A stretch of 52,258 bases of DNA from the NCBI GenBank assembly GCA_032718475.1, contig JAUCBJ010007065.1:1-52258 (forward strand), written 5' to 3'. The number at the start of each line of letters is the position of its first letter. The stretch's first letter is position 1. Positions 12,882-50,949 of the stretch are shown here, one piece after another. A program made the translations under genes and the position numbers. The notes beneath the pieces are model-generated. The model made no database searches. It was not told where the DNA came from and saw only the letters and a program-made list of their open reading frames with translations. The stretch is from Nemertoderma westbladi. Lineage: Eukaryota > Animalia > Xenacoelomorpha.

Positions 12882-12893
12882 TATATCCGTTAT
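12882..12893 (-). promoter_or_regulatory. Non-tRNA primer-binding-site position of A2 (ATAACGGATATA)
   Basis: Directly after the LTR end; perfect reverse complement of A2 LTR site 25297-25308. Confidence 0.75.
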
Positions 12894-13399: not shown

Positions 13400-14570
13400 T
13401 GTAAAAGCTTTTGCGTCATTAACCGGTTATTTTCCCTTAAAGTACTCTGTAGTTGGTTTGCCAGGCATAAAAAGGCCGTGTCCTTGCTGTACTGGTGTTT
13501 TAGAGGACATAAAAGTCATTTCTTCTGTATTTGTACTGTATTTGTACTTTAGAGGACATAATCCGCAATCTTGTGACGCGATAAGCTAGATACTCTTGAA
13601 AACAGTGTCGCTACCATGACGACGGCTAGCAGCTGATATTGCCACGTCGACGTTTCTTTGTTTCTTTGTTCTCTCGTTGTTCGGTTGACCAATCAGAGCG
13701 TTTTTTGTCTCTGTGTTGGAGGTGTATACAGAACTCAGTAGTTCAGTGTTATGTTTTTGCCCAGAGCCTAAGAACCGGCTTTTGGCACCTCCGTGTTTCA
13801 GTCTTTAGTCTTACATTAGTAGGCTTAATTATAGAACGTATATCTGTTATCTGATTCACTACTTACCTACCGAGTTACCTTATCAATGCAATTTATACCT
13901 TAACTTTACTGCTTTTGCTGTTGATTATTCGTTATATTTGTTGATGAATTATTATATCGGAATACTGATCAATAGCCCGACATCCCAATCTTCTTGATAT
14001 ACTAAAGGTTAGAGAGACCGGTTACAGATAAACGATTGCGACCTATGTATGTTAAGTGGTTTGAAGTGAATCTAATGCTATTTCATATGCCCAACATAAA
14101 TTGTCTGTTGCTCTCTTTATACGTGACCAAATTTAGTGAAGGTCGGCAGATTAGTGTGCAGTATTGTGCAGCATTGGGTATGAGTGTAACTGATAACAAA
14201 GCATCTCCTAAAGAATGCGCCATATACGTAAATCTATAGCCTTTTCGTTGTGTCTAGTTTAAGTCATAACTCTGTTTACATATTTAGAGCGCCACGTCCT
14301 AAAGGAACTGTTAATATTTCCCGAAAGTGAATAATATTTGTCAGAGATTATATATTACGATCAGTCGAATAATACAGTAGGCTTACACCATCAATCATTA
14401 AGCTCCGAACTCAGTCTCCCGGGTATATCCAATGGGTTAATGATTGCGCATAGACTGGCTTCGGCTAATGTAGTGTATCAAATACTCGTCATAGGCTAAA
14501 GACTATCTATCATCCAAAAGACATTCTAATTTTGGCAGGTTAAACTGTCAAAGGTCTGAAAGCGCAAACA
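13400..14570 (+). repeat. 5' LTR of A3 (1171 bp, TGTAAAAG...CGCAAACA)
   Basis: Direct repeat of 23913-25048; differs by a 35-bp indel and about four substitutions seen by eye. Confidence 0.96.
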
Positions 14571-14581
14571 ATAACAGATAT
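14571..14581 (+). promoter_or_regulatory. Non-tRNA primer-binding-site position of A3 (ATAACAGATAT)
   Basis: The LTR end is fixed independently by the LTR pair and TSD. The next 11 nt are the reverse complement of ATATCTGTTAT at 13840-13850 (24318-24328 in the 3' LTR). Confidence 0.8.
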
Positions 14582-22284: not shown

Positions 22285-23760
22285 ATGGATAAACTTATAT
22301 AGCAGATATGATTGAGTTGATAGAAGATGATCTTGGTATCAGGGAGCGATATGCTCTACCTTTACAAGCGTTTGTTGATAGCCTGATACGCGGCGACGCT
22401 GGTCCAACTACTACGGAGGACGATGGTCGTTATATCTAACCGCCAATGTCCCGGGAGCAACTTGCGCATGGGTTAGACTGTAGAAAATTCATCGCTCGCT
22501 ATACGCATCGTAATGGTACGTATATGGACTTCTTAACTACTGGTCATCCTATCGACATCCTACACGATACGAACGATATAGACACCAAAGGGAAATGGTT
22601 TATTTAAATATCATACCCAGCGGAAGCGGAACGATAAACTGAGACTCGAACACGAAAATTCTATTCGAAACCGACTCGAAAGTGCAGATGTCGAAATGCC
22701 GGATAAACGCAGCGACTCCACCAAATACCTGGAATTTTTGAGAGAAACCTATCTCGATATTACCAGTCAACAGAATCTAGAAACTCGATATCCTCAAGGT
22801 ATACATCATGACCGCATGGTAGAACTCAAACGGCTCTATTCCACTATGATGTATCTTACCGCCGATCGATCGCTACCTGTTGTACCGGATAGCTTCGAAC
22901 GGATGGAGGAATATTCTAAGCTGGAGAAAGATCACTCGCGTTTCCCCTACAAGACGTGCGTTTTTGGTATTATTGCGATGAATGCCCAAGACCCAACCAA
23001 CAAACGGAAAGACATAAACATCCGCGGAGACGTTGCTTTAAACACGGTTTTACTCGCTATACTTACGGGAGTTTCGAGCGAAACTTGTTCGATGTATCAC
23101 CTACGATCGTTCGACTCAGACGATCCTTAAATAAACCAATGATCAGAGTTTCGGAATGCTCGATCAGAACTCCTCATTCCCTAGTGAGACTTCAGACTCT
23201 TGATCCTATTAGTATGACGGATCCTCCCGAGCTGTACTCACTGTTCAAAGATCTAGTGTTACCTGAACAATTAGTCGGTGGCACCCGGTTGTGGGCTTCC
23301 TAGATATTAGCCCATCCTACCTAGCCGGATTGGGACGCGGACATTTAATATCGCCGTTTAACCCTTACCATCGTCCCGGCTTAACACGATATAACCTGTC
23401 ACCAAAGTGGCGGAGAACGTTGTACCAAACGAGTTAAACGCTATTCTACAAAGATCAGAAAGGAAACCTGCGTTTGTTCAGATAAACGTAAGTTGTAACA
23501 GCAAGTCCAAGCTAGCGATAAACGAATTGTCTTTATCTCAGTTCGATTGTGAAATCCAGAATCTCTAAGAAGATATCGAACTTAGACAACCCCATTCTCT
23601 GCGAGAGTTTTTGGATGAACGTATCCAGCTACGAGCGGAGGAAAATCAGCTCGAGGAGAAGCATATCGAAACGGCGGATACCCCGACCATAATCCTACAC
23701 CTTCTGATGCAATTATATTGCACCCTTCACCCAGGATTTATAACCCTCCTAGTAAAGTGG
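22285..23760 (+). pseudogene. Decayed additional ORF of unknown family just before the 3' LTR of A3
   Basis: Coding-like, more GC-rich stretch giving consecutive protein-like fragments (MIELIEDDLGIRERYALPLQAF.., ORFs 22696-23130, 22956-23303, 23611-) broken by stops and frameshifts; no family recognised. Confidence 0.5.
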
Positions 23761-23912: not shown

Positions 23913-25048
23913 TGTAAAAGCTTTTGCGTCATTAACCGGTTATTTTCCCTTAAAGTACTCTGTAGTTGGTTTGCCAGGCATAAAAAGGCCGTGTCCTTGC
24001 TGTACTGGTGTTTTAGAGGACATAAAAGTCATTTCTTCTGTATTTGTACTGTATTTGTACTTTAGAGGACATAATCCGCAATCTCGTGACGCGATAAGCT
24101 AGATACTCTTGAAAACAGTGTCGCTACCATGACGACGGCTAGCAGCTGATATTGCCACGTCGACGTTTCTTTGTTTCTTTGTTCTCTCGTTGTTCGGTTG
24201 ACCAATCAGAGCTCAGTAGTTCAGTGTTATGTTTTTGCCCAGAGCCTAAGAACCGGCTTTTGGCACCTCCGTGTTTCAGTCTTTAGTCTTACATTAGTAG
24301 GCTTAATTATAGAACGTATATCTGTTATCTGATTCACTACTTACCTACCGAGTTACCTTATCAATGCAATTTATACCTTAACTTTACTGCTTTTGCTGTT
24401 GATTATTCGTTATATTTGTTGATGAATTATTATATCGGAATACTGATCAATAGCCCGACATCCCAATCTTCTTGATATACTAAAGGTTAGAGAGACCGGT
24501 TACAGATAAACGATTGCGACCTATGTATGTTAAGTGGTTTGAAGTGAATCTAATGCTATTTCATATGCCCAACATAAATTGTCTGTTGCTCTCTTTATAC
24601 GTGACCAAATTTAGTGAAGGTCGGCAGATTAGTGTGCAGTATTGTGCAGCATTGGGTATGAGTGTAACTGATAACAAAGCATCTCCTAAAGAATGCGCCA
24701 TATACGTAAATCTATAGCCTTTTCGTTGTGTCTAGTTTAAGCCATAACTCTGTTTACATATTTAGAGCGCCACGTCCTAAAGGAACTGTTAATATTTCCC
24801 GAAAGTGAATAATATTTGTCAGAGATTATATATTACGATCAGTCGAATAATACAGTAGGCTTACACCATCAATCATTAAGCTCCGAACTCAGTCTCCCGG
24901 GTATATCCAACGGGTGAATGATTGCGCATAGACTGGCTTCGGCTAATGTAGTGTATCAAATACTCGTCATAGGCTAAAGACTATCTATCATCCAAAAGAC
25001 ATTCTAATTTTGGCAGGTTAAACTGTCAAAGGTCTGAAAGCGCAAACA
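23913..25048 (+). repeat. 3' LTR of A3 (1136 bp)
   Basis: Direct repeat of 13400-14570, followed by TSD AGATT. Confidence 0.96.
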
Positions 25049-25771
25049 AGATTCACTTCAAACCACTTTAACATAAGTCACAATCGTTATATGTAACCTT
25101 TCTCTCTTACCTTCGGTATATCAAGAATATTGGGTTTCGGGGTTATTTATCGTTATTCCAAATATAATAATTCATCAACCATATTATGAAGGACCGACAG
25201 TAAATAGCAGTATAACAATATAATAGTATGCACAGTGTTACACAGTATGCAGTGTCAGGTTTGGTTTGAGACAATCAGGTTTGTTATGATTTGCAGATAA
25301 CGGATATATGTCCTTATAATTAAGCCTACTAGTGTTAGGCTAAAACAGAAAAGCACAAAATATTCCCAAGCCGCTCTCTCCTGGCTCAGGACAGAATGTA
25401 AACACTGCACATAAAGCATTGCGTGATTTCTAGGTAATTTCTGTACAAGAGCCATAAAAATGCTCTGATTGGCTGACTGAACTGAGAGACGCCGTAGAAC
25501 AAAGAAAATCAACACGTATGAATATCAGCTGTTAACCGTAGTCATAGTAACTACTGTTCAAGAGTAGCTATCACCTTTTGCGTCACGGAATTGCCATAGA
25601 ATCATCAACTATGCCTTTTACAGTACACATACGGAGGAAATAGGTCTTAGATCCTCTAAAAAACACCGATACAGCAATAATACAGTCTCTTACACCTATT
25701 AAATCAACTACAGAGTATTTTAATGTAAAAGATAATAAAAATAACGGGGCAATTCAGCAAAGGCTTTTACA
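25049..25771 (-). repeat. A2 5' LTR, upstream (U3-side) part
   Basis: Matches A1 LTR 7881-8597; terminus ..CTTTTACA at 25771. Confidence 0.9.
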
Positions 25772-28306: not shown

Positions 28307-28644
28307 TATAGAATTATATTCCCTAAATGCCGTGGATTTTCAAAATTTTATTTTATTCGAATTAACTTTGTAAAAGATTACATTGAGTCCTCATTTGTAT
28401 TGCTATTTCTATTTGTACGCCTATTGGTCAATTATTTATTTAATGTAAACAGCGACCTCGAAAACCTTTAAACCATTGAAATTATAATTTTTGAGCCAAG
28501 ATATAAACAAATGTCTAAAATGACCCCCCTCTGCCCCTCACCCCCCCCCCCCCCTGGGCCAATTGAGTAGTAAAATAGACCGGACCAGATAGGGTTAATT
28601 TATTTGGTCATATATGGCCATTGGTTTATTCTACACTGAAGATA

Positions 28645-28796
28645 ATCGCATGCTAGACACGTGCGATACGCATGGGTACTTCGCATGATATCCGCATGCG
28701 TATCGCTTCTAAAGGTCCCGACACTTTCCCATGCGATTCGCATGCGAATTAGATGCGTGACCCACATGCGATACGCATGAACATTTTTGACTGGGG
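28645..28796. repeat. CGCATGCG-rich palindromic repeat, possibly one end of a non-autonomous DNA transposon
   Basis: Repeated GCGATACGCATG / CATGCGTATCGC in both orientations, ending TTTTTGACTGGG; no second terminus found. Confidence 0.4.
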
Positions 28797-29010
28797 TTTC
28801 AATGGAAGTAGTTAAAATAATGTCATATTTAAAAATGAAAACCATACTTTTTTATCTACTTATAAAATAAATCATTTCAGCAATATGTCTAATGTTTTCA
28901 CATTTTTTTCTTTTTTTCTTCCCTTTTCCCTCTTTTCCCCTTTCTGTTTTTCCTTGTTTTCCTGCTGGTTTTCTTTTTTTTTTTCCCCCCTCCCAGCAGT
29001 CTGTTTCACC

Positions 29011-29085
29011 CCAAGCCTAGCTCAGTCGGTTAAGCGTTATTATGCGAAATTATGTGTAGTAGGTATCGAGTTCAAATCCTAGTAA
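29011..29085 (+). pseudogene. tRNA-derived sequence with Pol III A and B boxes
   Basis: TAGCTCAGTCGGTTAAGCG (29018-29036) and GAGTTCAAATCC (29068-29079) at tRNA-like spacing; T and acceptor stems do not pair. Confidence 0.55.
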
Positions 29086-29168
29086 GTGTGAATTATTTTT
29101 TGTGCTAAGTTTCAACTCATTTAAATTAACCGCTACGAATTAAATTGCATTTGCTCAAGGTAGATTAA

Positions 29169-29315
29169 CCAATAAGATTGCAGTTATTAGATAGTAACCA
29201 ATGTCGTGCAAGTTATATGTTCGCTGGACCAATGGTTATCTTTAAAAACCTATTAGAACTCATAGAACAATCTAGATTTATCTCGATTGATTGCAGCACA
29301 AATTTGCTATAAAAA
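29169..29315 (+). promoter_or_regulatory. Pol II promoter of element B: three CCAAT boxes plus TATA
   Basis: CCAAT at 29169, 29198 and 29229 (~30 bp apart); TATAAAAA at 29308. Confidence 0.6.
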
Positions 29316-32300
29316 GGTGCGATTTGTTCATTAGTTATCTTCTTACACATTCACTTCAGTTAGTTATTTCTATCCTCATTTACTTGTTACATTTATTGTA
29401 TAATAGTTATTGTTTAATTCTGTAATAAAGTTAGAAAATACTTGTTACATCTGTTTTTTACTATGCTTCACCACGGTGAACCCAACTGAGGGACAGATGG
29501 CTGGCTAAGCATCGGACCGCGGCAGTAGACGAGAACATCGGAGGAATGTAGAAGGAGACGACCCGCAATACTCATTCTTAGTTATTCGCCCATCGCCTGA
29601 AAGGTTAGACAGCGTTCGATGCCTTGCTACCTAAGTGTAGTAAGACCTAAGATCAAAGGTAGAGGTATTGACACGCTGTGCGCTAAAAAATTACATCTAG
29701 GGACTGTACTGTCTTAATTCAGAGAAAACCCGCAGTGGACCTTCACATTCCTACGGGGGGAGATCAGGCAGAAAGATACTAGTACACATATAGGACGCAG
29801 GCACACCAGTACAAGGCATACACATTGGTAGGGTGCAGCAAACTGTACGCCTAACTCTTGCTAAGTATAGGTGCGTCGGTGGCTTGTTTGTAGTACAACG
29901 GTGTCCATTTGCATTAGAACTTGTAGGCCAGGAAGGGTTACTGTGTTTTACCTGAATTGAGATTGTACCGTTCAGGCGGTAGGGCAGTTTATTACTAGGT
30001 GCAAATAAATTGAGGCTATTAGGGATACTAACATCTACCGTGTCCCCGCCGACATTCTGATAGGAAGTTGCCGTGCCCACCTAGGCAACCAAAATTCTAG
30101 ATAAGAACGCCAGGCTAGCTATTTGTAAATGTACGCCTACTGTAGTAAATTAACACATTTCTTCTTAGTATTAGGGACCTGGTAAATAAAATTGCCGAAT
30201 TCTGGGCGTAGTATTAACCTTATGTCTGAATTTGAGTCCTGGAAATACACAAAAGGGGAAGGAGCCTTATCATTCGTGAGTATTGGACCTACAAGCTATA
30301 AAATTAGAATATTTGTAAAATGCACACCGGACCCAGTAATTATATATGTGAAGGATCTAAAACTTAGTTTGACTGTTAGAATCAAGACACACGCGCATTA
30401 GAAATTATTTACACCTCAAAATATATAAAATAATTTTTGTCCGTACTGCACTTTGCCCGCTAGTTAGACATTTCTGCACCTAGCTAGCGTCTCTCTTGCC
30501 CACCCATATAAATCACACCGCGGCAAAGTATACGAGCGTCCTTAGTCCGTCAGTGAGTCAGCCTGATTTTAGGATTCGCTGCGCGGGATTTTGTTTTATC
30601 GAAGTTTGTCCGTTCGTAGACTGTTTTCTGCCTCACCGGTTATAAGAGACTAATACTGCAATAGTTTTGCTTACTTAGAGTTTACTGTTTTGGTGAGAAG
30701 GTCGGATTTATGATTTGATTCACAGACTTTACAGTAGGATATTGCAGGTATTAGGTACGTCTCTTCCAACAGTAGGAATGTGTTTTACTGAACTATGGTT
30801 CAGTAGGACTAAAATTATTTGAAAATTTTGTATTTTGAGGTAAAAATTTGTATTTGATTAGCTAAGTGCTAATTTTTTTTTAAATAAAATTTTGATTTGA
30901 ACCGCGTGTAAAATATTTGGAATTGAATACCGGTGTTTAAAAAAGGGTTTAAATACCATATTGTACCGGTACAAAAAATTTTCGTAAAAGTAAAACCTAA
31001 CTCTTTGTTTTTCAGGATTCAGAGCTCATTTCTAGACTGTAACGAGAGCAAGACCGTGTTTAGCAAGTTTGGGAGATAGATAACTCAACAACTTTGGTTG
31101 GGAAAATCGCACTTCGTCTGCAACGCTGGAAACGGAAAGGTTCACGTCCGGTTTGTATCTGGGAATCTGTTTTTCTGGAGAATTATTGGAGGGGGTGAGT
31201 TTGAAAAGTTGCATAAATCAGTTAGGCATTACCGTATTAGTTAAAATTATTGTGGGTTCCACTGTCTCAAGTATTTATGCATTCCGTACGATTTCTTTAT
31301 TTATTGCTGAATTAGTCCGTATTATTTGTGTTTGATTTATTTTTGATAACGTATATCGTTATCCGATTTATTTGTTATAAAATTGGCCGCCAGGCTAATT
31401 TTATTATATACTTACTCCGTGACATTTATTTGCTGTAAAATTGGCCGCTAGGCTAATTTTATCCATCTGCTATAAAATCGGCCGGTAGGCTAATTTTATA
31501 TGACTGTAATTAATACCGTTTAGATATAAATACGGTAAGTTTGATACTTTGACACTCACTTTACTTGACTTACAACTACCGAAATGAGTGACAAACAAGA
31601 CTATACGAAGAATACACCTACCGACTATGACTCATGTGACACGGATAAGTCAGTAGCGGAAGAACCACAGGGGAAGACTCGTGAGCCTACCGAACCTACA
31701 CCGTGCGCGTCACCAGTACATCCAACAGGAGTACCGGATGCCGTAGTACGAGGCGACGGCAGGACTAAGGATTTTCTAACGGTCCCGCAACCTAGACATA
31801 GGGAAACGGACATGGTAAGTTCAGTAGGAAGCCAGGAGAGTGTTGTTAGAAGCGTCGGAGGATACATGGCGCATATTACCAGGAGCATTGGAGAAGGCCA
31901 ACGCATATTAGACGAGTTGACCGCTCCGATGTCTCGGTTCGAGTTTTACACCCTACAGATTAGAGTACAGAGTAAAGTACATAAGTCCGTAGATAACCTA
32001 ATCGGTCTACAAGATCTAGCTAAACAGAGACAGGATATGGACACACAGTTCAGAATCCTCAAGAAATTAATGATCGCTAGGGAGAAACTGATTCAGTTTA
32101 AGACGACCGTTAGACAGATACAACAGGAACAAGCGGACCAGTTGCTAGGTGAGTCAGTTTCCGACGAGTTATTACAGCCTGAGGAAGAACAGGAACTGTA
32201 CCGACTGGATGGACAATTGAAACATCTGACAGATTACTTACGTATGTGCGGCGAAGACGTCGGCGATTTGGAAACCGTGCCGGAATATACGAGGGAAACT

Positions 32301-33171
32301 TCACCCGCACAAATCGAACTGGCACCGGGAATATTGGATCAATCATTGGTGAGTATTCGCAGCGAAATTGGCGAGGTAAGTATAGTGACGTCAGAAATTG
32401 CTCGGCAGCAACAACAGTACTACAGACAACAACGAGAAATTGAGGAACAAACTCAACTGCTGACGGTACAAGCGGCAGTAGAGGAAGAGAAACTACGCGT
32501 CGCAAATTTTGCGAGAATCTCTCATCTACAAGAAGCAGCCGAATTAGAAGCAGCTGAGATGGAAAGGTTGGAGCTAGAAATAGCACAACGAACAGCGGCA
32601 GCTGAGTTAGCGCAACGAGCAGCAACAGCTGAGTTAGAACGACAAGCTGAGTTAGTGCGACGGACGGCTGAGTTGGAGCAACAAGCGGCGACAGCCGAAT
32701 TGGACGAACAAAGGCGAGTTTCGGAAGCGAGAGCCGAGTTGAAAAAACAACAGATAAAGGCTCAATCAGCTATATGACTAGCGGAGTTCGAGGCACAACA
32801 ACAACAGACGGAACAATGCGAGAAAGAAGTTAAACTTCATTTCGAACTCGAAAGGAAGGCGAGGGAATTAGCCAACGCCAAGGAAGATCTGCAGTAGTAG
32901 TGGTATATCTCCTATACATGATGCGACGGAACACAGGTATGTTATTCCGGACAAGTTTGTACCGCCAAGAGCAACGTCATCGCCTATTCCGAAAGTCAAG
33001 GTAAGTAACCCGCCGATTACAGATCGTAGTAGTTTATTAGTCGGACCTACATTAATGACGACTAAACAGGTGAGTCAACCGTCGACACCAAAACCGGTCA
33101 CGCACAACGTAAACCCAACTGTGTTTAGACCTACGAGAACTTTGGACTCAAACGCCATTAAACGACCACGG

Positions 33172-33495
33172 ATTCAGTTTACATCGCAATCTACAACTTC
33201 GAGGAAGACTTGTGAGCCTACCGAGCAATGGAGACCAGTAGACACGCGACCGTTTAATCAGTTTACATCGTAATCTACAACTTCGAGGAAGACTTGTGAG
33301 CCTACCGAGCAACGGAGACCAGTAGACACGCGACCGTTTAATCAGTTTACATCGCAATCTACAACTTCGAGGAAGACTTGTGAGCCTACTGAACAACGGA
33401 GACCAGTGGATACGCGACCGTTTAATCAGTTTACATCGCAATCTACGACTTCGAGGAAGACTTGTGAGCCTACCGAACAGCGGAGACTAGTGGAC
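33172..33495 (+). repeat. 84-bp tandem repeat (~4 units) in element B gag
   Basis: GGAAGACTTGTGAGCCTA at 33203, 33287, 33371 and 33455; unit encodes QFTSQSTTSRKTCEPTEQRRPVDTRPFN. Confidence 0.92.
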
Positions 33496-35580
33496 GATGT
33501 TTCGAAACGGAATGTTAGAATTCGTACAACCCAACGGACGCGAGCACGTCGGCCACCGTATCCAGGTGATAGTAGTACTTCGAGCGAATCGGATTACCCG
33601 GAACGCGAGGTGTTTAGAACAGGAGCAGCCGATGAATGCAAACGCGAGCGTTCAACTAATTCCTTTATAGACAATCCTCCACAAAATACACCAACACAGA
33701 AAGCGTTACAACCAACGGACGCGATCAGTACACAACAATTCGCCGACATTCTGCGACCAGTTGTTAACAAGTTGGCCCAGATCGAGGAACGCTTAGAGGA
33801 AGTTCAAACTGATAGTTCGAGAAATATGGAATTCGAACACGTTAGAAACCCGAAGGATCCGCCAAGGGCGATACCTTCAAGGAATACTTCGTACCAAAGA
33901 AAAGCGCCAAGACGGGAGAATATCAACTTGATTGCCACCCAAGGATGCGAAACTTTGAATGTCGCTGAAGAGATTGCTAAATTCGCAGCCAGACAAGGAT
34001 TACCGGCGCAGCAACCACCTAAGTTTTCCGGTAACTCCAAACATTGGCATACATTCGTAGACTACATCGAATCTCAAATTGCGGCGTGCGCTTTTACATC
34101 AAGGGAAAAGTTCAACTACCTGCTTCAAACCTTGACGGGAGAACCCGAACGTTTAGCAGAGACTTTCGTTGGTGTACCAGATGCCTTCGAGTTAGCATAC
34201 GATCGCTTAACTTCAATCTACGGAGGTACGGTAAGCATGGCCAAGTCAGTAATAGAGGAACTCTGTAAGGGGGGGGCTATTACTAAACCCGTCGACTTAC
34301 TAAAACTGGCTGATGAAATTAAGAACGCTATCACTACATTACGATCTATTGGACAACTCGATTACGGAAACACCCCTACAGTCCTATTAAAAATCATAGG
34401 GAGACTACACCATCGACTTCGTCGGGAGTGGAGGAAAATAGAATATCAGCGAGAAGAAAGGGGTGGATTTTTGAAACTGGAGGATGTGTACCTATTAATA
34501 TCTAAGGAAGCAGTGGTGGAGACTCGATCCAACTACACCGACCAACACATTGTAGCAGAAGGAATCACCTTACCATCATCAAACCGACCAAAACCCCAGA
34601 CAACATCCACCAGGACGGCTACCTACGTCACACCGACAGAAACCCGACAATTTTCGGACGGTAGTAAAGTATCCGCACCTATTGGGATCAAACAGACCAG
34701 ACAGCAACTGAGTGCCGACTTTAGCGGTTGCCAATACTGCGAGCACTTAGGTAAGCGGCATACTAGCCACAAGTTAAGAGGTTGTCGGCTATTTCGTGAG
34801 TTAAACTCGGAAGAACGACGGCTACAGATACGGCCATTGGATTCTTGTTGGCGGTGTACGCAACACGGACACGTTCGCAAGGATTGCCCAAATACAGACA
34901 CCTGTCCTTCCTGTGGACGCAACCATGACGGTCTGCTCCATACGGATAGTCATACGCCGACAAAACGCTTCACTAGGGAACACCCAGAAGCAGCAGCGAA
35001 ATGCAATACTGCGTACAAGAATTGAGAATCGAGAACAACACCAACTTTCGTGACACATATTCGGGATTGTTTCTCAGAACAATCCGGGTCTTCTGATGAA
35101 GAATCCGAAGACGACGACATATACTCAGATGGAGACGAACAACCATCGATTGCGCTTCTGACGCCTGACCAACTAAAGGGATTTAGCGTAATTCCTGTCA
35201 AGATTACTGGCACAAAAGGGAGCAAACGGATTTACGCTATTTTAGATTCAGCCTCATCTCACAGCTATGTGGACGAGAAGGTAGCTGATGTCGTGACGGA
35301 TCTCCGACAAGGTAAGAACGTCAAATACACTGTAAGTAGTATGCATGGACAACGTGCAATACCAGTGACACGAGTTAAGTTAAACTTAGACACTCTTCTT
35401 CCGAAATCGCAACATAGCGAAAGGGAGAGGTCTTTGTTACCCTTTAAGGATTTAACTTTTGCGGCCACTAAGGACTTTAGTAATCTACTGGGTCCAGTGC
35501 CAGAACAGTCCTTAGAGGACCGTAAGTATTTCAGACACCTTGGTGTACCTGAATGTCCTGTTAACTATTGATCAGTAGCA

Positions 35581-36981
35581 ATGCTGATCGGGACAGATCA
35601 ATTCAACTTACATCAAGTGTGGGAAACCAGACCATCGGTAGTCGTAGCAGGAAATGCATACGCCTGTCGAACACCGATAGGTTGGTATACTCGAGCGCCT
35701 GTGCGCACACTAGATATAAGTGATGAGGAAGACGATGTACAAAGTACATGTAGTTTATTAACTACAACTTCAACTCATTCTTTTTCACACGACAAGGACT
35801 ATACTACACTACGTTCGACAAAACACAACAACGTTACAAGTACGACGTGCGTAGCGAGTACGATAAGTCACAAAGAGCAGTCAATCCACAAGGTTAGTGT
35901 AGAGATTGAGAAGGAGCGGAGTCAGGCAGAGGATCCATCAACGATAGATGATAACGCCGGAAGGCTTGTGAGTCTACCTCAACCAATAACCTCAACAACG
36001 CCCGTCGATGAAGACGCGTTAAGAAATCATCAAGTGGAACAAGCCGCGCTAGACAAAGAATTAACAGAGAAAACTATCAGATGGTTGGAACAAGATACAG
36101 CCGAACCTGGTAGTTACGAACCATGTATGTCGGAACAAGAGAAACAATCTTTAAAGATCATGGAAGATACTATCCGCCAGACGAAAGACGGATATTATGA
36201 GGTAGGGATGCTATGGCATAACCAAAGTCCTAAACTTATAAATAACTATCCGTTAGCCTTAAGACGTTTAAACTCAATAAGACAACGTTTACTAAAGGAC
36301 GAGAAAGCCCATCTGCAGTATAATACTCAGATGGAGATGTATTTTACAAAAGGATACGCTATCAAAATGACAAACCCAGAGATTGTAACAGACCAGACAT
36401 ACTACTTGCCACATCACTACATGAGACACCCCGACAAACCTGATAAAGTACGTGTGGTTAATGACTGCGCGGCTCTGTTTGAGGGAATGTCTCTCAATAG
36501 TGAGTTGATGGATGGACCAAACATGAATAATTATCTCATGGGGGTGATTATGCGCTTCCGTCAGCGCCAAGTAGCATTTACTTGTGACGTAGAAGCGATG
36601 TTTCACCAAGTGCGAGCGTTAGAGCGAGACAGAGACAGTTTGAGGTTCCTCTGGTACCCGGATGGAGACTTAAGTCAACCACCGGCGACTTACCAAATGC
36701 AAGTTCGCGTTTTCGGTGCCAGGGACAGCCCAAACTGCACTATGTACGCCCTAAAACAGACCGCTAGGGACCAGAAACATAAATATGACCCAGAGGTAAT
36801 CCAGATCGTAGAACGAGATTTTTATGTGGACGATGGATTACAAAGTTGTGACACAGTAGAACGTGCTATAACAGTAGCACATCAATTACGGGACTGTTTA
36901 GCAGGCGGAGGTTTTAACCTCACCAAGTTTGCCTCAAACAGCGCCGAATTAGTGAATTCGACTGAACGACTGAACGACTGA
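35581..36981 (+). CDS. BEL/Pao reverse transcriptase segment
   Basis: YYLPHH..KVRVVNDCAA..SLNSELMDGP..RFR..DVEAMFHQV..LRFLW..VFGARDSP..DFYVDD..GGFNLTKFASN. Confidence 0.93.
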   Translation: MLIGTDQFNLHQVWETRPSVVVAGNAYACRTPIGWYTRAPVRTLDISDEEDDVQSTCSLLTTTSTHSFSHDKDYTTLRSTKHNNVTSTTCVASTISHKEQSIHKVSVEIEKERSQAEDPSTIDDNAGRLVSLPQPITSTTPVDEDALRNHQVEQAALDKELTEKTIRWLEQDTAEPGSYEPCMSEQEKQSLKIMEDTIRQTKDGYYEVGMLWHNQSPKLINNYPLALRRLNSIRQRLLKDEKAHLQYNTQMEMYFTKGYAIKMTNPEIVTDQTYYLPHHYMRHPDKPDKVRVVNDCAALFEGMSLNSELMDGPNMNNYLMGVIMRFRQRQVAFTCDVEAMFHQVRALERDRDSLRFLWYPDGDLSQPPATYQMQVRVFGARDSPNCTMYALKQTARDQKHKYDPEVIQIVERDFYVDDGLQSCDTVERAITVAHQLRDCLAGGGFNLTKFASNSAELVNSTERLND

Positions 36982-37003
36982 ACGTGGGGGTGGTGACATT
37001 GAC

Positions 37004-40000
37004 TTGGAATTCGAACCACTACCAACGACCAAGGTGTTGGGACTATTTTGGGACCCGAACACAGACAACTTTCGAGTGAAAGTAAGACTGGACGCTCAAG
37101 GGGATTCTCTGACAAAGAGGTCTTGCTTGTCGAAACTAAGTAGACTGTTCGATCCATTAGGTTTCATCAGCCCAATAATATTGCAAGCAAGAATATACAT
37201 GCGCAGTATTTGGAAAGATGGACTGACATGGGACGAACCGATCTCATCTGAACAAGTAGACTTATGGAAAACTTGGGAGGCGCAATTGTCTTCACTAGAA
37301 GATTATTCCATACCCCGGGTATATTTTCCATTACAGACGACATTTCCTGACAACTTAGAATTACATTGTTTTTCCGACGCCAGTGACAATGGCTTTGGAG
37401 TGACAGCGTATTTGCGCAGACAAGTAGACTCAGATGAGTTTGATGTTTCGCTCATTACTTCGAAGGCTAAAACCATGCCTACTAAGTATATGACGACACC
37501 ACGCGCTGAGCTACAAGCCGCAACTCTGTCAACCACCATTGTAAACCTCATACAGACTGAACTACAGTCAAGTTTACAGATATTTTATTGGACTGACGCG
37601 ACGTTAGTTTTATTTTATATAAACAACGACACACTTGAATTTAAGACATTTGTAGCCAACCGTCGCGCAGAAATTCTAGACCGTTCAATAAAAGAAGATT
37701 GGCGACATTGTCCCGGACCACAAAACCCAGCTGATATTGCGTCGCGAGGAATGATGCCTGAGGAATTCTGTAAACCGGAAAACAAGGAATTTTGGCAACA
37801 CGGACCACAATTCTTACAAAGAGCAACACAACATTGGCCGCCACTATACGATAACAAGTCTAACACTATTCCTAAGGACGCCGAAATTAAAAAACCAAAG
37901 AAAGGTAAAGCAAAGAAAAAGACAACGGCGAAACTTAAGAAGGAACCGAAGGCGAAATGGAAAAATATAACTCACAAAGTTAAGGCAGGAAGACTTGCGA
38001 GCCTTTCTCAACCAGACGTATCGCCAGACGGTCAACCAGACATGTTACCAGACGATAAACCAGACGTATCGCCAGACGGTCAACCAGACATGTTACCAGA
38101 CGATAAACCAGACACGTTACTAGACGGTCAACCAAACATTTTACCAGACATTTCACAAGATGTTCTACCAGACACTAGTAACATACTAACACATAGTAAA
38201 GCCGCAGTTTCCCTATTGGAGCGGCCTTCCATTGACAAACTACCAAACTTGACACCCTTGAGTAACCATAAGTACAGTGAAACCTCATGTATTACAGATG
38301 TGGGTAGTACCTACGCAAATGTAAATACAGGTGTTACTTTACGCTCAAGAGACATACCAACCTTACAACCTACGGTGAAACCTGGGATCGACACACAAAG
38401 AACTGACAATCAAGGTAAGAAGACAAAGATGGAAAAATTACTTGTAGACCCGGACGGATCAACAGTTAACAAGGGAATACCTACAGGCGGACCCGTGGGC
38501 CCATCTAGTAAAACAAAACCTTCCAAATTCTCCATTGACTTACCTGATGACGTCATAAATACTTACGTCGACCGTATTGTGAACTTAACAGATTCTTGGA
38601 CAAACGCGTGCCGAAAATTAGCGTGGATTGTACGTTTTGTACAATACGTTAAAGGCAAACGCGACTTTACACGTCGACTTACATTGACTGAGATTGACAG
38701 ATGTGAAATTAAATTAATTCGCCATTACCAATTGCGATATTTCGCACGCGAATTCACATCCATAAGTCAAGGTCAACCAATCAAGTCGTCACCAATATTG
38801 AGTTGGAGTCCGATAATTTATAATGGCTTAATTTGTCATAAATCTCGGCTTCAAAACATTGACTTTAATACCGATTTTAGGTACCCAATAATAATACCGC
38901 AACATCACGAATTACAACGTGCAATGATACTGGACGCACATTTACATCTGAAACACGCTGGAAGACACCACTGTCTTTCCTACTTACGTACAAGATTTGT
39001 ATTAATTAGACCCAGTAAAGCACTAAGTTCGGTGACACGCATGTGTATTATTTGTAAAAAGGTACATTCTAGAATAAGTACCCAAGAAATGAGTGAACTT
39101 CCACAAGCACGACTACAGGCATACAGACCAGCTTTCATAGAGACTGGAATTGACTGCTTTGGTCCCATACATACGAAACGTGGACGTATACTAGTAAAAC
39201 GCTGGGGACTGATTTTCACATGCATGTCCAGTAGGGCAGTTCATATTGAACGTGTGATGGATCTTTCCACCAACGCTTTTATACTAGCATTGCGGCGATT
39301 TATCGCTAGACGCAGACTAGTAAAATGCTTGTACTCAGACCAAGGTACAAACTTTGTTGGTGCTCGAAATGAAATTGCTAGAGCCTTTAAGAAATTAGAT
39401 CATGATCAAATCTCAAACGAACTACGTCCTTACAAGATTGTTTGGAAGTTTAATCCTCCAGATAGTCCATGGAGAGGCGGAGTCTGGGAGAGATTGATTA
39501 GATCTATAAAAACAGCCATGGCAAAAGTAATTCCAGTAAACCACATCTTGACAGACGACCAACTGACCACATTGTTTGTTGAAATCGAGGCAATACTAAA
39601 TAATAGACCAATAGTGTTATTACCCGATGACAAACAATCCCAGTTTGCTTTAACACCTGCACACCTGCTAATGCAGGCACCGACTACATTAATGCCTATT
39701 TCGATTCCAATAGAAGACGATAGCTACTGTAGAAAAGCATGGAAAATCACGCAACTACTGGCTAACAAATTCTGGGAAATATGGCAAAACCATTATTTGC
39801 CCTCTATTTCTGCCAGAACTACTTGGTACAACAAGACTCGCGCTTTAAAGCCGGGAGATCACGTACTGTTAGCAGAAGTGAATTTAAAAAGACGCTTCTG
39901 GATAACAGGTGTTATTTTAGACACACATCCATCTATGGATGGAGTGACAAGAACTGTGACGGTACGGACAATTGACGGTCGTACAGTAGACAGACCGACT

Positions 40001-40075
40001 CAACGTCTCGTACTTCTTGAAGAGACTCGTAACAAGTCTGGAGATTACAAGTCTCCAACTAATGTTAGTAAATAG
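37004..40075 (+). CDS. BEL/Pao RNase H plus integrase segment
   Basis: KVLGLFW, LFDPLG, LHCFSDAS, TPRAELQAA, YWTD, FVANR, WRHCPGPQNPADIASRG. HHCC (HLHLKH..CIIC), GIDCFGP, YSDQGTNFVG, PWRGGVWERLIRSIK, EAILNNRP, FWEIWQNHYL. Confidence 0.95.
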   Translation: MEFEPLPTTKVLGLFWDPNTDNFRVKVRLDAQGDSLTKRSCLSKLSRLFDPLGFISPIILQARIYMRSIWKDGLTWDEPISSEQVDLWKTWEAQLSSLEDYSIPRVYFPLQTTFPDNLELHCFSDASDNGFGVTAYLRRQVDSDEFDVSLITSKAKTMPTKYMTTPRAELQAATLSTTIVNLIQTELQSSLQIFYWTDATLVLFYINNDTLEFKTFVANRRAEILDRSIKEDWRHCPGPQNPADIASRGMMPEEFCKPENKEFWQHGPQFLQRATQHWPPLYDNKSNTIPKDAEIKKPKKGKAKKKTTAKLKKEPKAKWKNITHKVKAGRLASLSQPDVSPDGQPDMLPDDKPDVSPDGQPDMLPDDKPDTLLDGQPNILPDISQDVLPDTSNILTHSKAAVSLLERPSIDKLPNLTPLSNHKYSETSCITDVGSTYANVNTGVTLRSRDIPTLQPTVKPGIDTQRTDNQGKKTKMEKLLVDPDGSTVNKGIPTGGPVGPSSKTKPSKFSIDLPDDVINTYVDRIVNLTDSWTNACRKLAWIVRFVQYVKGKRDFTRRLTLTEIDRCEIKLIRHYQLRYFAREFTSISQGQPIKSSPILSWSPIIYNGLICHKSRLQNIDFNTDFRYPIIIPQHHELQRAMILDAHLHLKHAGRHHCLSYLRTRFVLIRPSKALSSVTRMCIICKKVHSRISTQEMSELPQARLQAYRPAFIETGIDCFGPIHTKRGRILVKRWGLIFTCMSSRAVHIERVMDLSTNAFILALRRFIARRRLVKCLYSDQGTNFVGARNEIARAFKKLDHDQISNELRPYKIVWKFNPPDSPWRGGVWERLIRSIKTAMAKVIPVNHILTDDQLTTLFVEIEAILNNRPIVLLPDDKQSQFALTPAHLLMQAPTTLMPISIPIEDDSYCRKAWKITQLLANKFWEIWQNHYLPSISARTTWYNKTRALKPGDHVLLAEVNLKRRFWITGVILDTHPSMDGVTRTVTVRTIDGRTVDRPTQRLVLLEETRNKSGDYKSPTNVSK

Positions 40076-40733: not shown

Positions 40734-42362
40734 ATGCCTCTAATAATGGCGAAGGAGATACATGGAGAGCCGAGATGGGGATATGATATCCAAGAGGAAA
40801 CAGCAGCGCCATTCGAAAGATTCGGTGCAAAGGATTTAGTATATTTCGAGACGTGTATCTTCGCTGTGCGGGATCTCTTATCGAAAGACCATCTATGTTT
40901 ACATTGTTACCTTATGAAGGAGAACGTATCGTGGAGGTTACGGACGAATCACGGCAGACGCGCGCGCCTATCGGTCACTTAGGTGATGATTCCGACTTAA
41001 CGACGAACATCGATGATCCTCTAGAGGAACTTCTTGAGATTGAAAGGAACCTCCCGAAGAAATCTCAGACGGAGATTCGACAACTTGAAGCAACAGATGC
41101 TGTAGTTTGCATACAACCTTCTGAAACATTCCAACCTATCGATCCAGATGATTATGACTATAGTGTGGGAGGAAGCGCTCGACCCATTGGAGATCTCATA
41201 TATGAGCGAGTGTGGTACCCTGCCAATACGATGTTGTAAATGTGGCGTCGCTGGACATCATTCGACAAAGTGCAGTGGAAAGCACATTACTACGACTCAA
41301 CTAATCTGTGGATGGTGTGGGGATCAAGGGTCCCATACATTTTATACTTGCTGGAGATTTATGGCTCAATGCACATATTGCAATATAAAGGGACATCAAG
41401 CATCTGAATGCCAACTGCGAGACATACCATACGAACACGAATCTGTAAAACTCGTGAGAAAACTATTCGACGATTGGGAAGATTTAGTTGACAAACATGT
41501 ATCGGCACAAAGAAGGCGATTCCCGATGAGAGCGCATCTTGGATTTTGGGCGGTAAATCCCCAAACGATGATGTCGGAAGGATATATCTCCGCTATGCCG
41601 CAATATGATGAACTAATTGAGGTGGTTGATATTTTGCCTCATGATAGTGGATTTCGAGTTGTGCGCGAATATTTGTTACAGATTCACCCCGACAATAAGA
41701 ATACATGGAACTTCCAGAAAGTAGTCAATCGTATTACATATGGTGAATTTGATCGTTTCCGAACGGAAAAGCGGAACAAGGGAGCTTGGTTAACCGTCGC
41801 ATGGGCATACCGAGCCGCGTTCTACCATAAACTCATACGAGCGAGCGTATTCGAGGAAGAGGAGGTCCTAGAGGCGACTAACATATCAGCAACTCCGGTC
41901 GCGCCGTCTGCACGTCACTCTCGGGAGGACGGACAGAATAGGATCATAAGGGTTCAGAAAGTGGGCCAACAATTAAAGAAAACTATCAATGTTGAAGAAC
42001 GAAGGGGATACGAACCGACTATTCGAATTACTCGAGATACGGTATCGCTTCCCAGAGAACCGCAAGGAGGATCGGGACATATACCAGAAGATTAAAAGGG
42101 GGCGCAAGTTTCTCTTGGGTCTGCGTCGTCCGCTTCCCGCGCGTTCCCAGACGTTTTACCAGCGGTAGACACAACCGATCGGTCACGAGGAATCGGACGA
42201 GGATTTGGGATAACTAAGAGACGAATATGTGAGGAAATGGTCGTACCATCTCCCAACGTCCAAGGTAAACCGGTGACTCGCCCCACAAGTCCCATATCAC
42301 GAGCTAAGTCACCGATACGCAGTTTTCGAGGACGCGGCAGGGCTCGATCAGCTAAGCGATAA
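40734..42362 (+). pseudogene. Accessory 3' ORF of element B: triple zinc-knuckle protein with Arg/Gly/Ser-rich tail (disrupted)
   Basis: Overlapping ORFs 40638-40982, 40853-41239 and 41148-42095; CCKCGVAGHHSTKC / CGWCGDQGSHTFYTC / CTYCNIKGHQASEC. The frame stays open past TAA 42093 to 42362, ending RSFRGRGRARSAKR. Splice acceptor-like site at 40684-40714. Confidence 0.75.
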
Positions 42363-42851: not shown

Positions 42852-43396
42852 ATTTAGTAAGATTTATATTTAGAAAGTGCTATATTTGTAGTCATTCCAA
42901 ACTTACGCAATTTGTTGTTCGAATACTATGCAATTTATATTGTATAAAGAAGCAGTACTTGTATTCGCAGTAAATAGAAGGCAAGAGCAGACGGAAGACT
43001 TGTGAGCCTTTCTTGTGACTTATTTGAAATTATTCCGAACTTATGTAATTTGTGTTATATTTAAGTAGCATTTGTATTTGTGATTGTTCGAATTTATGCA
43101 ATATTTGAGATGCAATAGTGTTACGGTATATGGCGCTGTATCCACATTATTAGCCATTATACAGTACAATATATTAGTCCATTATACCGTACGCAATATT
43201 AGTCCGTTATGCAGTATAATATTTTAGATAAGGTATAATAGCGCAATGACATTTAGATAAGGAAATTGAAACGCCCATATATTTGAATTCATCCATTTTG
43301 TATAGTATGTAGCTCTACCTATGTAATTTTGTATTAATATATAAGTAGATAGTTCCAGGGTAGCAAGTTCAGTTGGACCCTGGATTTTGGGCTTGC

Positions 43397-46300
43397 TGTT
43401 ATTAGTCTTGATGGGCTAGCTATCACGTGTCGTAATTTCCTATAATTGTGCTAAATTAATGTTTGTGCATCATGTTATTAGTACCGCTAAATTAAGCACC
43501 GGCAAAATTACCTTATATGGTGACGTTTTGAGGGTTTGAGAAGCAATAGGGCTACAATCCGGCTTTCTTATTGGACTAACGGCTTCCAGGTTGGTCTAAT
43601 GATAAGCGCGGATTGAAGAGCCAATGAGTGAGCGATTGCATCACCCTTCTCGGATCACCTATAAATTGGCGGTTTGCCGGTAGAGCTGTACGACAATACC
43701 CCAATAACCTTACCCACTCACTCAGACATATTTAGTACCATTAAGTTAGAAGTATAATTTGCGTATTTTCTGCAATTTTCTACCTTTTGATTAATTTTCT
43801 TGGAATGATTCGTTAGTGCTATTATTCTCAATTGTGTTTCTCAATCAATCCTATCGATTACTGCTAATTACAACCGGAACTATGATTTCTACCCCTTTTG
43901 TAAATGGTTCTATGTGATTCATTTCTACGCAATAATCCTAAGGGATTTTCTGGGACAGGCAGACTTTTGTGATTTGCATGCGCCGCTACGGTAGCTATTC
44001 AATAAATGGAGGGCTAAGGTGCCGGTAGGCGGTGGGCGCATCGGGGGGTTGGGCGACTAAGGGAGAGCGGAGGATTCAAAAGTGGGCAACGCTGGCGGGG
44101 GGTCACCGTTGCGGTCGGGCGTTTCGCACTGTAGCATGCAGACCATTCGCCGGTACAGTAATTAGGGGGCTGATGATCCAGGTTTTGTCTCTATTTAGTA
44201 TTAGGGGGGCAAGAATCGGGTTAGTTAGGAAGCCTAGATGTACCCGGGAGAGGCCTGCACGTATTACAGTGTGAAGTGTGGAGTACGAATAGTGAATTGC
44301 ACAACTTTGGGCAGTGAACTGCATAATTGCGAGCTGTGATTGCTGACGCTGATTGGTGTGTTACTGAAGTGTGCCTATGATTACGAATGCTTAGGTAGGC
44401 GCCTTTTCCCTTTGATTGATTTCTATTTCTTAGTTTACAACAATTAATTACTGATTAGGTCAAAGTAATACGGTATTTTAGGCTATTACTAGCGAAACCT
44501 AGTTTGTAATAAATTAGAATTGCGCATTCTGGAACTCTTAGTAATTAGTACGCTGTTACATATTTGTGACTGTAATTAGTTAGTGAAATTAAGAATTAGT
44601 ACGCAGCATAGCGGAGAGTAGCTAAGGTAATAATTAGGGTACTGTAAACTATTCACGCTGAGCGGTTATTTGCATTAGCGGGCAATAAGCTAGATCGCAT
44701 TATTCAGTACGCACAACACACTAGTAATTTGCTGGCCTAAAGCCAGCTGCAGGCAAGCTTAGACCCAGAGCGGTATTACCCACGTAGAGACAAAATACTG
44801 TACCATTTTTGATTATTTAAATATTCTCGCATTCATACATTCCGTTAGGGAACCCCCAGTATTCGCGATTAGAAAAGACGTAGGCATTATCGTATTTCAA
44901 TAGTAAAATTAGGCATAAGAATACTCTGAGTGCAAAGCCTCTCGCACTCGTCTTAAGTAAGCTTAGGGAGCCGACTCGGGTTTATTGTTTTGGTTATTCC
45001 CGCGTGGCTCATAGATTCGAACAGTTAGCTCTCTGTCGAGCGATCGGCAGAGAAAGGAACAAGCGATTTTGCAGGAGCCGTATAAATTTAGTAAAATATA
45101 TTAGCGGACGGCAGATTAGCGCCATCCAACGGTAAGTAGCGGTTTTGTATTTAGCAGCCCTACAATTTAGTAATAGCACGATGCTGATCGCCTTTACTTA
45201 ACAGTAGAGCAGTCTTTGTGTCTTATTGGTTAGGCGGGAACTCATTAGGTTGGCAGAGAAGTATACGGGTATTTGTCTGTTCAACAGTTCTGCTGTTAGT
45301 ATAGGGGTCGCGGTTGTTTATCAGTAATACGTGTATATTGTTTTGCTGTACTGCATACAGTAAATACGAATTAGATTACTGCATTAGGCACTGTACTGCG
45401 TACAGTAAGACAGATAGAGTATTCTTAGGCTGTTAATTTAGATTACTGTATTCATTGGTCGCATGCAGTGGTACAATAGTACAGTAGTACATTAGGCTGA
45501 TTGCTGTTACTGCGTATGGTAGAAAGGACAATTGTTTTGCTGTACCACATACAGTATTCATTAGGCACTTAGGTTACTGGTGTACTGTTTTACTTACTGT
45601 ACTGCATACAGTGGATGTACAGTAGTGCGTTTTACTAATTGCGAATACAGCAGTTCCTTAGGCCTTAGGGCAAACTGTAATTAGTAAGTTTTGAAAATTT
45701 TAGCTAGGTTTGCGAGAATTCAGTTTCGGTCAAAAATATTTGTAAAATTCTAGAGTTTTGTACCGGTATGTTAGGTAACCGCTTAGTTATTTTATACCAT
45801 CTGGAGATACATGGCAAGACGGAACTTCTGAGTTTGGGGTTCGTGTGGGTCTGCGGGTTCGGTTTGCAATCAGCGAAGAGCCTGAATCTTTGGACGCGGA
45901 CGTGGAATCTCACAGCAAACAAGGTTAGTTGTTCTGTTGGCACCATTGTGTTTGTGGAAGCAGTAAAAAATTATCGGTTGTTTAACTGCGAAGCTGAACT
46001 CAATTTATTAGTTAGGTTATTTAGGTTTAGCCAGCCATGGTTTTTTTGAATCGCTCAAGTTAGAGAGAGAGTTAGAGAGAGTCGCAACCCGAAGATGTAG
46101 CCACGCGCTAGTGGATACATATAATATTTGAAATTAAAATTACATTGATTAGAGCTATATATGTAAAATTAGAAATATTCGGGTGGCAAATTTATTTTGA
46201 ATATTTTGTATTAGATTCAGAAATTATTTTGTGTCATACCGGTATTTAATTGCTATATAATAGCTATATAATAATATTTTTGTTTAAATATTGTGCTAGT

Positions 46301-50730: not shown

Positions 50731-50778
50731 TGCTGTGATCTTAATAATATAGTTAGATCATGCAAAAAGGTAAATTAA
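46474..50778 (+). CDS. BEL/Pao Gag-protease (1434 aa; last ~15 codons read into the inserted LTR)
   Basis: Coiled-coil 33-bp repeat ERERKERELQL (~47630-47840), capsid-like region, CQYCx9Hx4C / CWACLAPGHVRRQC / CMECGRLHHKLLH, YVMLDTAST, MLIG, RTILGWY. Confidence 0.92.
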   Translation: MIASEKDALEDSYETAAGPPTDDSVNITVDDNADYDDAASDADVSEQEDETVTREEEQQPQVIVLGSPTATVRKDCTAARTEVSDREGSVAEARAQSPVSRPVGMVSAVVPTAVRSTRSSRNNPSSPPSVSQVSERELDIAIKKKLRAHAGHITRTTDKVRKMLADSANIERVGLVEIIRGYNSALFKQTEELAVLAKKAVESQSSDVATRNYDRVLAALLEHRELSERFRRVRTENWLLWASQAQATQVSDAELRDLVEREETQDKVEHRYQREVTSWLMQNGVVVPGQVLPTTENIQQRMLTPPNDASRDSGDSQVSHARGKVICARSLVSHNSAEERRRRLDEQQAEVLRASEARKEAERERERTHKLDAKLRELEDKGKCERAEREQKERELQLERERKERELELEREQKEHELQLERERKECELQLECEQKKREFQLERERKERELEIEKERQALYEEKARVEEESAARRVREEEERKLAQLESARLSLESKERTRKANEIAEKGMRMIEECGASVGTELRELFALQKAEQEASTPTIRESTTTRIPIPGPAITSTRIAKPFSTYRTPVGISASPIAQNPRHHRTAALYTERDNEEFRGETPTGRVLGEPNPRVWNTRTERRPSSTENFRVKPEEGSYERQQITQIEPTIQQNPSQEFITRDELSASLAQAISPHIQPITDMLSNLRLKEAAQVRSNSNPSRPELDKVQPSQRVRISEETIPHRPQVRTPVPNIHNPDFENSAEKFIQDAWVRASARKPSRALRTDTESSDEEEDMRRQKSRNYKERRTDAEQVSLNHRERTRLNNPAELNHLLTRNDATLRDIGKFAARQGLPTQQLQKFMGNHKHWRTFKTYVDEQLTNSTFTPNEKFNYLLQMLHREPRAIADNFVGNERAFELAMKTLSDIYGNKTKMAQSIVEDLGKGGRITTPLELLNLANAISNALDILRTVNLPHHGDHAEVLKSVIRRLNMRYRQKWRKLENKLEGQGKVLTLQHIHDMIATDAVAEMKSNFSEENMRESKPVTGKSMVSFDDDRTTVTFNSVDRYNSNTPAFRSDSRVWSGERLDRPRLKQQELPDGFVGCQYCLLKEVRSDDHKLDSCRRFKELNSEQRRVQVRTLDTCWACLAPGHVRRQCPNSKDGCMECGRLHHKLLHADFHTPMDRYLQRNPHRKGSKEPVSIRRNTYTGIQDDGYQPGSLDEDGESSAREVTCQGFTADSSSTSARTYLSSATSEIFSVILVKLTGDKGSKRIYVMLDTASTLSYIDQEVARAVSSFQDAEEIQIELKSMHGVGDLKGHRISVELDSLLPRDQHTRQERKALPLDGFKCLAMKGFGRQLGKVPPMSPIAQEYFDKLRIPRHQVGYRNVSMLIGAEQLIAHQILETRPAEPRVNGPHAHRTILGWYTRVPMSYEFTGGDCCDLNNIVRSCKKVN

Positions 50779-50904
50779 GTTTATCCTGTATATCGGTAAT
50801 CCCGTAGTATATTAGTCGTACTTATCCTAAGCTAGAATACATTTTGAATTTCCCGCCACCTGCATTTAAATGTTACATAAACATAATAAGGGTAGAACCC
50901 ACCA
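50731..50904 (-). repeat. Putative 3' LTR of the Gypsy element (~174 bp, TGGTG...CAGCA)
   Basis: Starts 1 nt after the PPT; imperfect inverted termini; the end could be 50734 instead. Confidence 0.6.
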
Positions 50905-50905
50905 A

Positions 50906-50920
50906 CTCCCTCCCCCCTTT
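50906..50920 (-). promoter_or_regulatory. Polypurine tract AAAGGGGGGAGGGAG
   Basis: Pure purine run 30 nt after the integrase stop. Confidence 0.85.
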
Positions 50921-50949
50921 AAGATTGAGTTTGTCTAACGAGATCTGAG

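Follow-up and report, generated by a model that had tools for sequence, protein, structure and literature searches.

Probable Tf1-like self-priming in a BEL/Pao retrotransposon of an animal genome

In a window of 52,258 nt of animal DNA (the whole stretch that was analysed), which is packed with nested BEL/Pao LTR retrotransposons, the element termed B probably initiates reverse transcription by Tf1-like self-priming and would represent the unsplit-primer version of such a mechanism within the Belpaoviridae. The evidence for the lineage is strong as far as sequence data go, and that for B alone is moderate. In B, the 11-mer GTAGGAATGTG (30772-30782, forward strand), a candidate primer-binding site (PBS) that begins with GT, stands directly 3' of ..TTCCAACA, which ends in ..CCAACA at 30771. 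As an earlier note on this DNA had reported, it is the exact reverse complement, over 11 of 11 nt, of 29744-29754 (forward strand), the candidate self-primer. With the B LTR taken to end at 30771, none of 100 nulls equalled this match. The same note had drawn attention to an alternative LTR-like end, GAGAACA (29537), whose 3' flank pairs imperfectly with the same region; this pairing was recovered, with a duplex energy of -22.2 kcal/mol against the segment 29735-29765, versus -28.4 kcal/mol for the site at 30771. Neither candidate end (30771 or 29537) is followed by TGG, again in agreement with that note.

Perfect 11-nt inverted repeats occur three times in total in 28900-31590. Just one of 130 CA, one of 39 ACA and one of 6 AACA sites immediately precedes an 11-mer that has its complement upstream, and at least one such site appeared in 9.6%, 3.0% and 0.8%, respectively, of 1000 second-order Markov simulations. 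Taken alone, the match in B is no more than suggestive. Complementarity of at least 10 nt between the sequence after the LTR and the LTR interior, as used to recognize Tf1-type elements, is found in B conditional on the end at 30771. A primer built by splicing for B's own PBS was rejected; the best candidate reached 8 nt and was equalled in 71 of 100 nulls.

Ten copies of a 17-nt motif mark the extent of B, which begins at about 29.0 kb and reaches at least 43.0 kb. Stops and frame changes divide its gag-pol region of BEL/Pao type (31584-40075, forward strand) into several ORFs; the region carries, in order, the Pfam domains DUF1759, zf-CCHC, Peptidase_A17, Integrase_H2C2 and DUF5641; the Gag domain DUF1759 is present in families A, B and C of the window alike (Pfam). 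The reverse transcriptase (RT) shares 41-55% identity with BEL polyproteins, and those that are named come mostly from marine invertebrates. Judged by its predicted proteins, B is a BEL/Pao (Belpaoviridae) retrotransposon; it is decayed and multi-copy. It is not a member of the Tf1/sushi chromoviruses, its Pol being of the BEL/Pao and not of the Ty3/gypsy type. In a placement tree containing unnamed BEL relatives only, B occupies a long branch far from the tested relatives. No relative of B was found in viral contigs, and a 22-nt B LTR pattern had no exact match in metagenome contigs.

The 17-nt motif, GGAAGACTYGYGAGCCT, occurs in 10 copies on the forward strand between 31672 and 43009, spanning gag, pol and the 3' region of B; it is expected 0.01 times by chance and is absent from the window outside B. 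It is possibly a repeated cis-element, such as a packaging signal. Two extra ORFs in the 3' region (40787-42095, forward strand) have neither a Pfam match nor a match in 80 related loci, and the post-pol ORF at 41106-42095, likewise without either kind of match, is Cys/His-rich. A long in-frame low-complexity insert with 12-nt repeats (37986-38560) lies between RNase H and integrase of B pol.

For the 5' LTR of B we infer both ends, giving a putative TG..CA repeat of about 1770 bp (29002-30771, forward strand). A TATA box that may serve as start signal (TATAAA, 29308-29313, forward strand) lies where the earlier note had placed it, with CCAAT at 29169, 29198 and 29229. An AATAAA at 29424-29429 (forward strand) is upstream of the primer site, and more are found downstream of it at 30004 and 30185. 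Self-BLAST at word size 9 or 7 revealed no second B LTR in the window and no target-site duplication (TSD) was found for B, the LTR end not being fixed by a second LTR. Contigs from four public runs (X1-X4; three samples, X1 and X2 being one) were aligned to 28700-33100, and those of three runs were aligned more finely to 30660-30880. Depth goes up at 28994-29140 and drops in the bins 30758-30904 of the coarse alignment, and across 30748-30780 in the three finely aligned runs. The mean depth of 28994-30757 over that of 30758-33100 is 1.97, 2.22 and 1.81 in X1, X2 and X3; summed contig depth is noisy and not a copy number, and a ratio of 1.8-2.2 is about that expected for two LTRs per element. 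A split at 29581, as for a short LTR, gives 0.84, 0.75 and 0.78 in the same runs. Against the first five bins past the step, the ratio in X1 is only 1.32. For X4, depth in 29582-30757 over the rest is 4.8, and the contig depths listed are 716, 950, 48 and 90 to the left of 30752 and 20, 60, 41 and 16 to the right of 30760.

One X1 and one X3 contig cease aligning at 30771, the former with one more unaligned letter; these ends could be bubble closures. Among the contigs listed for 30660-30880 in three runs, no bundle with diverse flanks is present at 30771, and the window copy differs from most contigs just upstream of this position, which may hide diverse flanks. One X4 contig is without the CA at 30770-30771, and 30760-30772 is also readable as a splice acceptor. 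The apparent invariance of the PBS among B contigs was set aside as evidence, since no more than 3 variant rows were listed for 221 nt, and the contigs, being unphased, yielded no covariation for B itself. The earlier note had cautioned that its LTR end was picked by means of the match. Depth favours an end at 30771 over one at 29537 independently of the 11-nt match, and the LTR of B likely ends at 30771. Tests were run with LTR starts at 29005 (B) and 43399 (C), the TGs being at 29002 and 43397, and the results are unaffected. At the start of the putative LTR lie motifs (29018-29080) that we take to be a tRNA-like A-box and B-box; ARAGORN and Rfam found nothing there, no tRNA gene was found in the window and no Rfam match in 28500-31700. 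The segment 28994-29434 is much deeper than the remainder in run X4.

Family A provides a control with fixed ends. The 5' LTR of copy A1 (13400-14570, forward strand) has a 3' counterpart at 23913-25048 and a 5-bp TSD (AGATT), so that A1 shows the two TG..CA LTRs and 5-bp TSD typical of BEL/Pao. Its PBS (14571-14581, forward strand) directly adjoins the LTR end and is the complement of the self-primer site at 13840-13850 (forward strand), which gives A1 the Tf1-type complement of at least 10 nt unconditionally. On the reverse strand, the self-primer site of A2 (8121-8131) is the complement of 7369-7379 and differs from that of A1 at 3 positions, on both sides of the pairing, and that of A3 (25297-25307) is the complement of 12883-12893; the two A3 sites are separated by the insertion of A1, which split the LTR, and self-BLAST is the basis for assigning both to one LTR. 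All three copies thus carry different 11-mers, each a perfect complement to the homologous site in its own LTR, and the 3 variable positions are all compensated; the A1 and A2 LTRs are 78% identical. No TGG follows the LTR in this family. The copies (195-25771) contain gag and protease without an RT match, are long, have 1.17-kb LTRs and are nested, with A1 inside the LTR of A3; they are likely to be non-autonomous elements that retained the self-primer. Near the 3' end of A1, an extra ORF (22582-23130) has no Pfam match and no match in related loci.

Similar complements recur in distant relatives. Of 80 BEL loci found by scanning metagenome contigs (RT 41-49% identical), 14 had an LTR 3' end set by a direct repeat; the other 66 were left out of the count. 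Complements were tested both contiguous and spliced, at offsets of 0-6 after the LTR end. TGG within 8 nt after the LTR end was found in none of the 14. A self-complement of 10-13 nt is present in 11 of the 14, compared with 8 of 170 swapped PBS/LTR pairs; two of the 14 (L049 and L062) have doubtful non-CA ends, and neither has a match. Ten of the 11 (L010, L016, L029, L034, L041, L047, L050, L056, L060 and L067, about seven separate groups on the tree) match only across a GTAAG..AG splice junction, with a GTAAG..YAG intron of 67-168 nt in the LTR. Each of these spliced matches was equalled by 0-5 of 200 nulls, and all ten have a GTAAG donor, though the search demanded only GT. The remaining locus, L077, has a contiguous 10-mer and is sister to L060 (support 90/84), a hint that its unsplit primer arose by intron loss. 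L052 was scored as a miss on its 3' LTR, and its 5' LTR carries the matching donor-side letters. As in B, the PBS begins with GT in 10 of the 11 matching relatives. A YAG ending 18-20 nt before the primer 3' end occurs in six of the 10 spliced relatives (mean YAG frequency 0.025 per base), the window having been picked after looking and three of the six loci being related; the CAG at 29733-29735 in B (forward strand) ends 19 nt before the primer 3' end, and A and C do not fit the pattern. The suggestion in the earlier note that the mechanism may be lineage-wide is supported, as regards the geometry, by the compensation in 3/3 family A copies, by these relatives (11/14) and by the depth step of B.

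Element C was considered as a third instance and is kept as a weak one, since its LTR end is not fixed and its candidate PBS also matches the unrelated A1 LTR over 10 nt. The weak candidate primer (44183-44194, forward strand) pairs with 44784-44795. The sequence before the first TG of C (43384-43397) resembles the purine-tract context of the relatives and of A. It may be that the C LTR also serves a B/C chimera as its 3' LTR; alternatively, C may have inserted near the 3' end of B. On the reverse strand, an rve-type integrase fragment of another LTR element (50770-52258) truncates C.

The earlier note had put the putative primer about 400 nt inside the transcript. An upstream exon, which would fit the TATA box at 29308, is implied by one X4 contig (depth 250; shorter side 22 nt; intervening letters not known) that joins 29603 to 31016; such a spliced contig would come from RNA, or a copy of RNA, with an exon upstream of the primer, although X4 is labelled DNA, by guess. 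The corresponding GT..AG intron of 1412 nt (29604-31015, forward strand), with its donor, CTAAC motif and pyrimidine-CAG visible in the sequence, spans the primer site, the putative LTR end and the PBS, and its removal would take away both primer and PBS. Predicted folding points the other way and favours a start within about 20 nt of the primer. For RNAs starting at 29723, 29734, 29736 or 29744, all 11 pairs are predicted to close, spanning 1028 nt; they are not predicted at seven starts in 29336-29700 or in four virtual upstream splices, and A1 shows the same predicted behaviour. This folding evidence is weak, because RNA ends have a tendency to pair in any case: among 12 control starts, 3 closed 8-9 long-range pairs and none closed 10. 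On these models, a start or splice no more than about 20 nt from the primer is more likely for the priming-competent RNA than a start 400 nt upstream. The need for an internal cleavage, which the earlier note set against Tf1, was overstated: in the available text of PMC7175516, Tf1 RNA is itself cut, between nucleotides 11 and 12, so a cut is no difference between the two. The sole difference of B from Tf1 in this respect is possibly a long 5' tail on the primer.

As regards the remaining steps, we infer the cut, the priming and the start site. In the unspliced RNA of B, 29744-29754 would pair with 30772-30782 in place of a host tRNA, and a nuclease, by analogy with Tf1 perhaps the element's own RNase H, would cut 3' of 29754. 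RT would then extend from 30771 back toward the cut, so that the minus strand begins exactly at the LTR end, and the product would jump to the 3' end. A genomic RNA ending at the AATAAA at 29424 would have no shared repeat for strand transfer from 29744, and the model therefore needs a poly(A) site downstream of 29755 (AATAAA at 30004 or 30185). Plus-strand synthesis would copy the primer and regenerate the PBS; a PBS rewritten in this way would lead to compensatory changes. Tf1 has an extra R/U5 stem beside its primer duplex. A stem of this type (8-9 bp) is predicted in B, its G-rich arm (29756-29763, forward strand) pairing with 30760-30767, and was rejected as a conserved feature, being not significant: 26 of 200 shuffles were as good as B, and A, C and 11 relatives showed no significant stem.

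A more far-reaching proposal, which we hold to be rather unlikely, is that a BEL/Pao branch dropped tRNA priming and that host splicing controls its self-priming. In the relatives, removal of the LTR intron would be needed to build the primer. In B, the unsplit primer inside the transcript would be part of a block of roughly 19 nt behind a YAG acting as a cis- or trans-splice acceptor, and the 1412-nt intron, by deleting primer and PBS, would sort RNAs into translation-only and copy-competent ones.

Other readings of the B region were weighed against self-priming from 29744. It is improbable that the LTR is short (29002-29537) and that the first 25 nt after the TATA box pair with a PBS-like site after GAGAACA (29538-29558, forward strand) in a decayed Tf1 geometry, 29744 and 30772 being joined in a leader or intron pairing. 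Such an LTR of 536 bp would have the textbook order of TATA, AATAAA at 29424, GAGAACA at 29537 and, 66 nt later, a donor at 29604. Its candidate primer, a pyrimidine-rich segment past the TATA-predicted start (about 29335-29363, forward strand), is the best upstream partner of 29538-29558 (-18.8 to -21.6 kcal/mol; next best -11.1). However, this pairing is imperfect at the priming end, where 6 nt are perfect (71 of 200 nulls), whereas family A and the relatives are perfect over 10-13 nt. In X4 the stretch 28994-29581 has about 20 times the depth of the rest, and depth falls past the AATAAA at 29424, in line with a short LTR, but an RNA library or a separate abundant repeat would account for the pattern equally well; X1-X3 show no excess over those bins (0.75-0.84), and the step sits near 30771.

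That the match in B is due to chance or to a structural pairing without a role in priming, with ..CCAACAG at 30772 kept as a splice acceptor and the real primer site elsewhere, seems more improbable still. The three perfect inverted repeats in the region, the 9.6% obtained if any CA is allowed, the X4 contig that retains AG without CA and the 10-nt match of the C candidate PBS to a foreign LTR would all suit this explanation, yet the depth step falls at the same place, the same geometry is seen in family A and in relatives with fixed ends, and the sole intron observed uses the acceptor at 31015 and not that at 30772. Least credible of all is priming of B by a host RNA (a tRNA, a tRNA half or some other small RNA) whose 3' part matches by luck, or at a TGG site elsewhere in the leader. 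Priming by tRNA-Arg/Gly is described for the family by the ICTV (PMC8742986), Achilles has a tRNA-Tyr PBS according to the available text of PMC4580426, and there are five sites of the form CA+0-3+TGG in 29002-31584; none of them coincides with an AACA end or lies close to the depth step. Moreover, the PBS in family A and the relatives varies freely and tracks the element's own LTR, a pattern incompatible with a fixed host RNA. Self-priming from 29744 is retained as the preferred reading for B.

If this is true, self-priming evolved once more, in a third LTR superfamily; the mechanism is widespread in these animal elements, and many of them couple it to splicing. Such priming would also account for BEL annotations that lack a PBS, offer a rule by which LTR ends can be located, and predict an escape from silencing by tRNA 3' fragments. 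For the B locus alone the gain is modest, namely one more, less well-bounded example. To our knowledge, self-priming has been proven only for fission-yeast Tf1, and it is predicted for some gypsy and plant copia lineages. In the available portions of the literature, descriptions of it cover Tf1/sushi and Tj1, and predictions extend to Tcn1 and the plant TAR copia elements (PMC6317226, PMC4600332, PMC7175516). Belpaoviridae are tRNA-primed according to their description, their replication being poorly understood (PMC8742986). Two BEL surveys (PMC3118150, PMC554778) contain no mention of primer, PBS or tRNA, and the accessible text of three further papers (PMC2774666, PMC3601003, PMC6934838) holds nothing on BEL priming. 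No report of BEL/Pao self-priming emerged from a literature search at the level of titles and the openings of abstracts, and one may exist in subscription journals, in Repbase entries or in supplements.

Among known systems, the chromoviruses of the Ty3/gypsy group (Tf1/Tf2/Tj1, Tf1/sushi and Tcn1) resemble B, in the available accounts, in having no tRNA PBS, in the 11-nt complement between a site after the 5' LTR and the LTR interior, and in requiring a cut 3' of the primer (PMC7175516, PMC4600332), which B would need as well. The Tf1 primer is the first 11 nt of the RNA (PMC7175516, available text). B differs from Tf1 in belonging to BEL/Pao, in a primer that lies 1017 nt from the LTR end and may not form the first 11 nt of the RNA, and in an LTR of roughly 1.8 kb. 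The BEL relatives differ in that their primer would be built across a splice junction, which does not figure in the accessible descriptions of Tf1 (PMC7175516, PMC4600332). For the TAR lineage of plant Ty1/copia elements (Houba, Osr-1), in which self-priming is predicted, the accessible text of PMC6317226 asks for a complement of at least 10 nt starting 0-5 nt after the LTR; such a complement is present in B, in A and in 11 of the 14 relatives (in 10 only after virtual splicing), although TAR elements are plant copia and of separate origin. With the Belpaoviridae (Semotivirus: Tas, BEL, Achilles), B shares the DUF1759 Gag, zinc knuckle, Pao peptidase A17, integrase and DUF5641, and family A shares the TG..CA LTRs and 5-bp TSD. 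In contrast to the ICTV description of that family, with an 18-nt PBS for tRNA-Arg/Gly, LTRs of 0.2-1.2 kb and genomes of 4.2-10 kb (PMC8742986), B has no TGG at either candidate end, a putative 1.8-kb LTR and a length of at least 14 kb. Its sequence suggests that B departs from the tRNA priming described for its family and is likely to work like Tf1.
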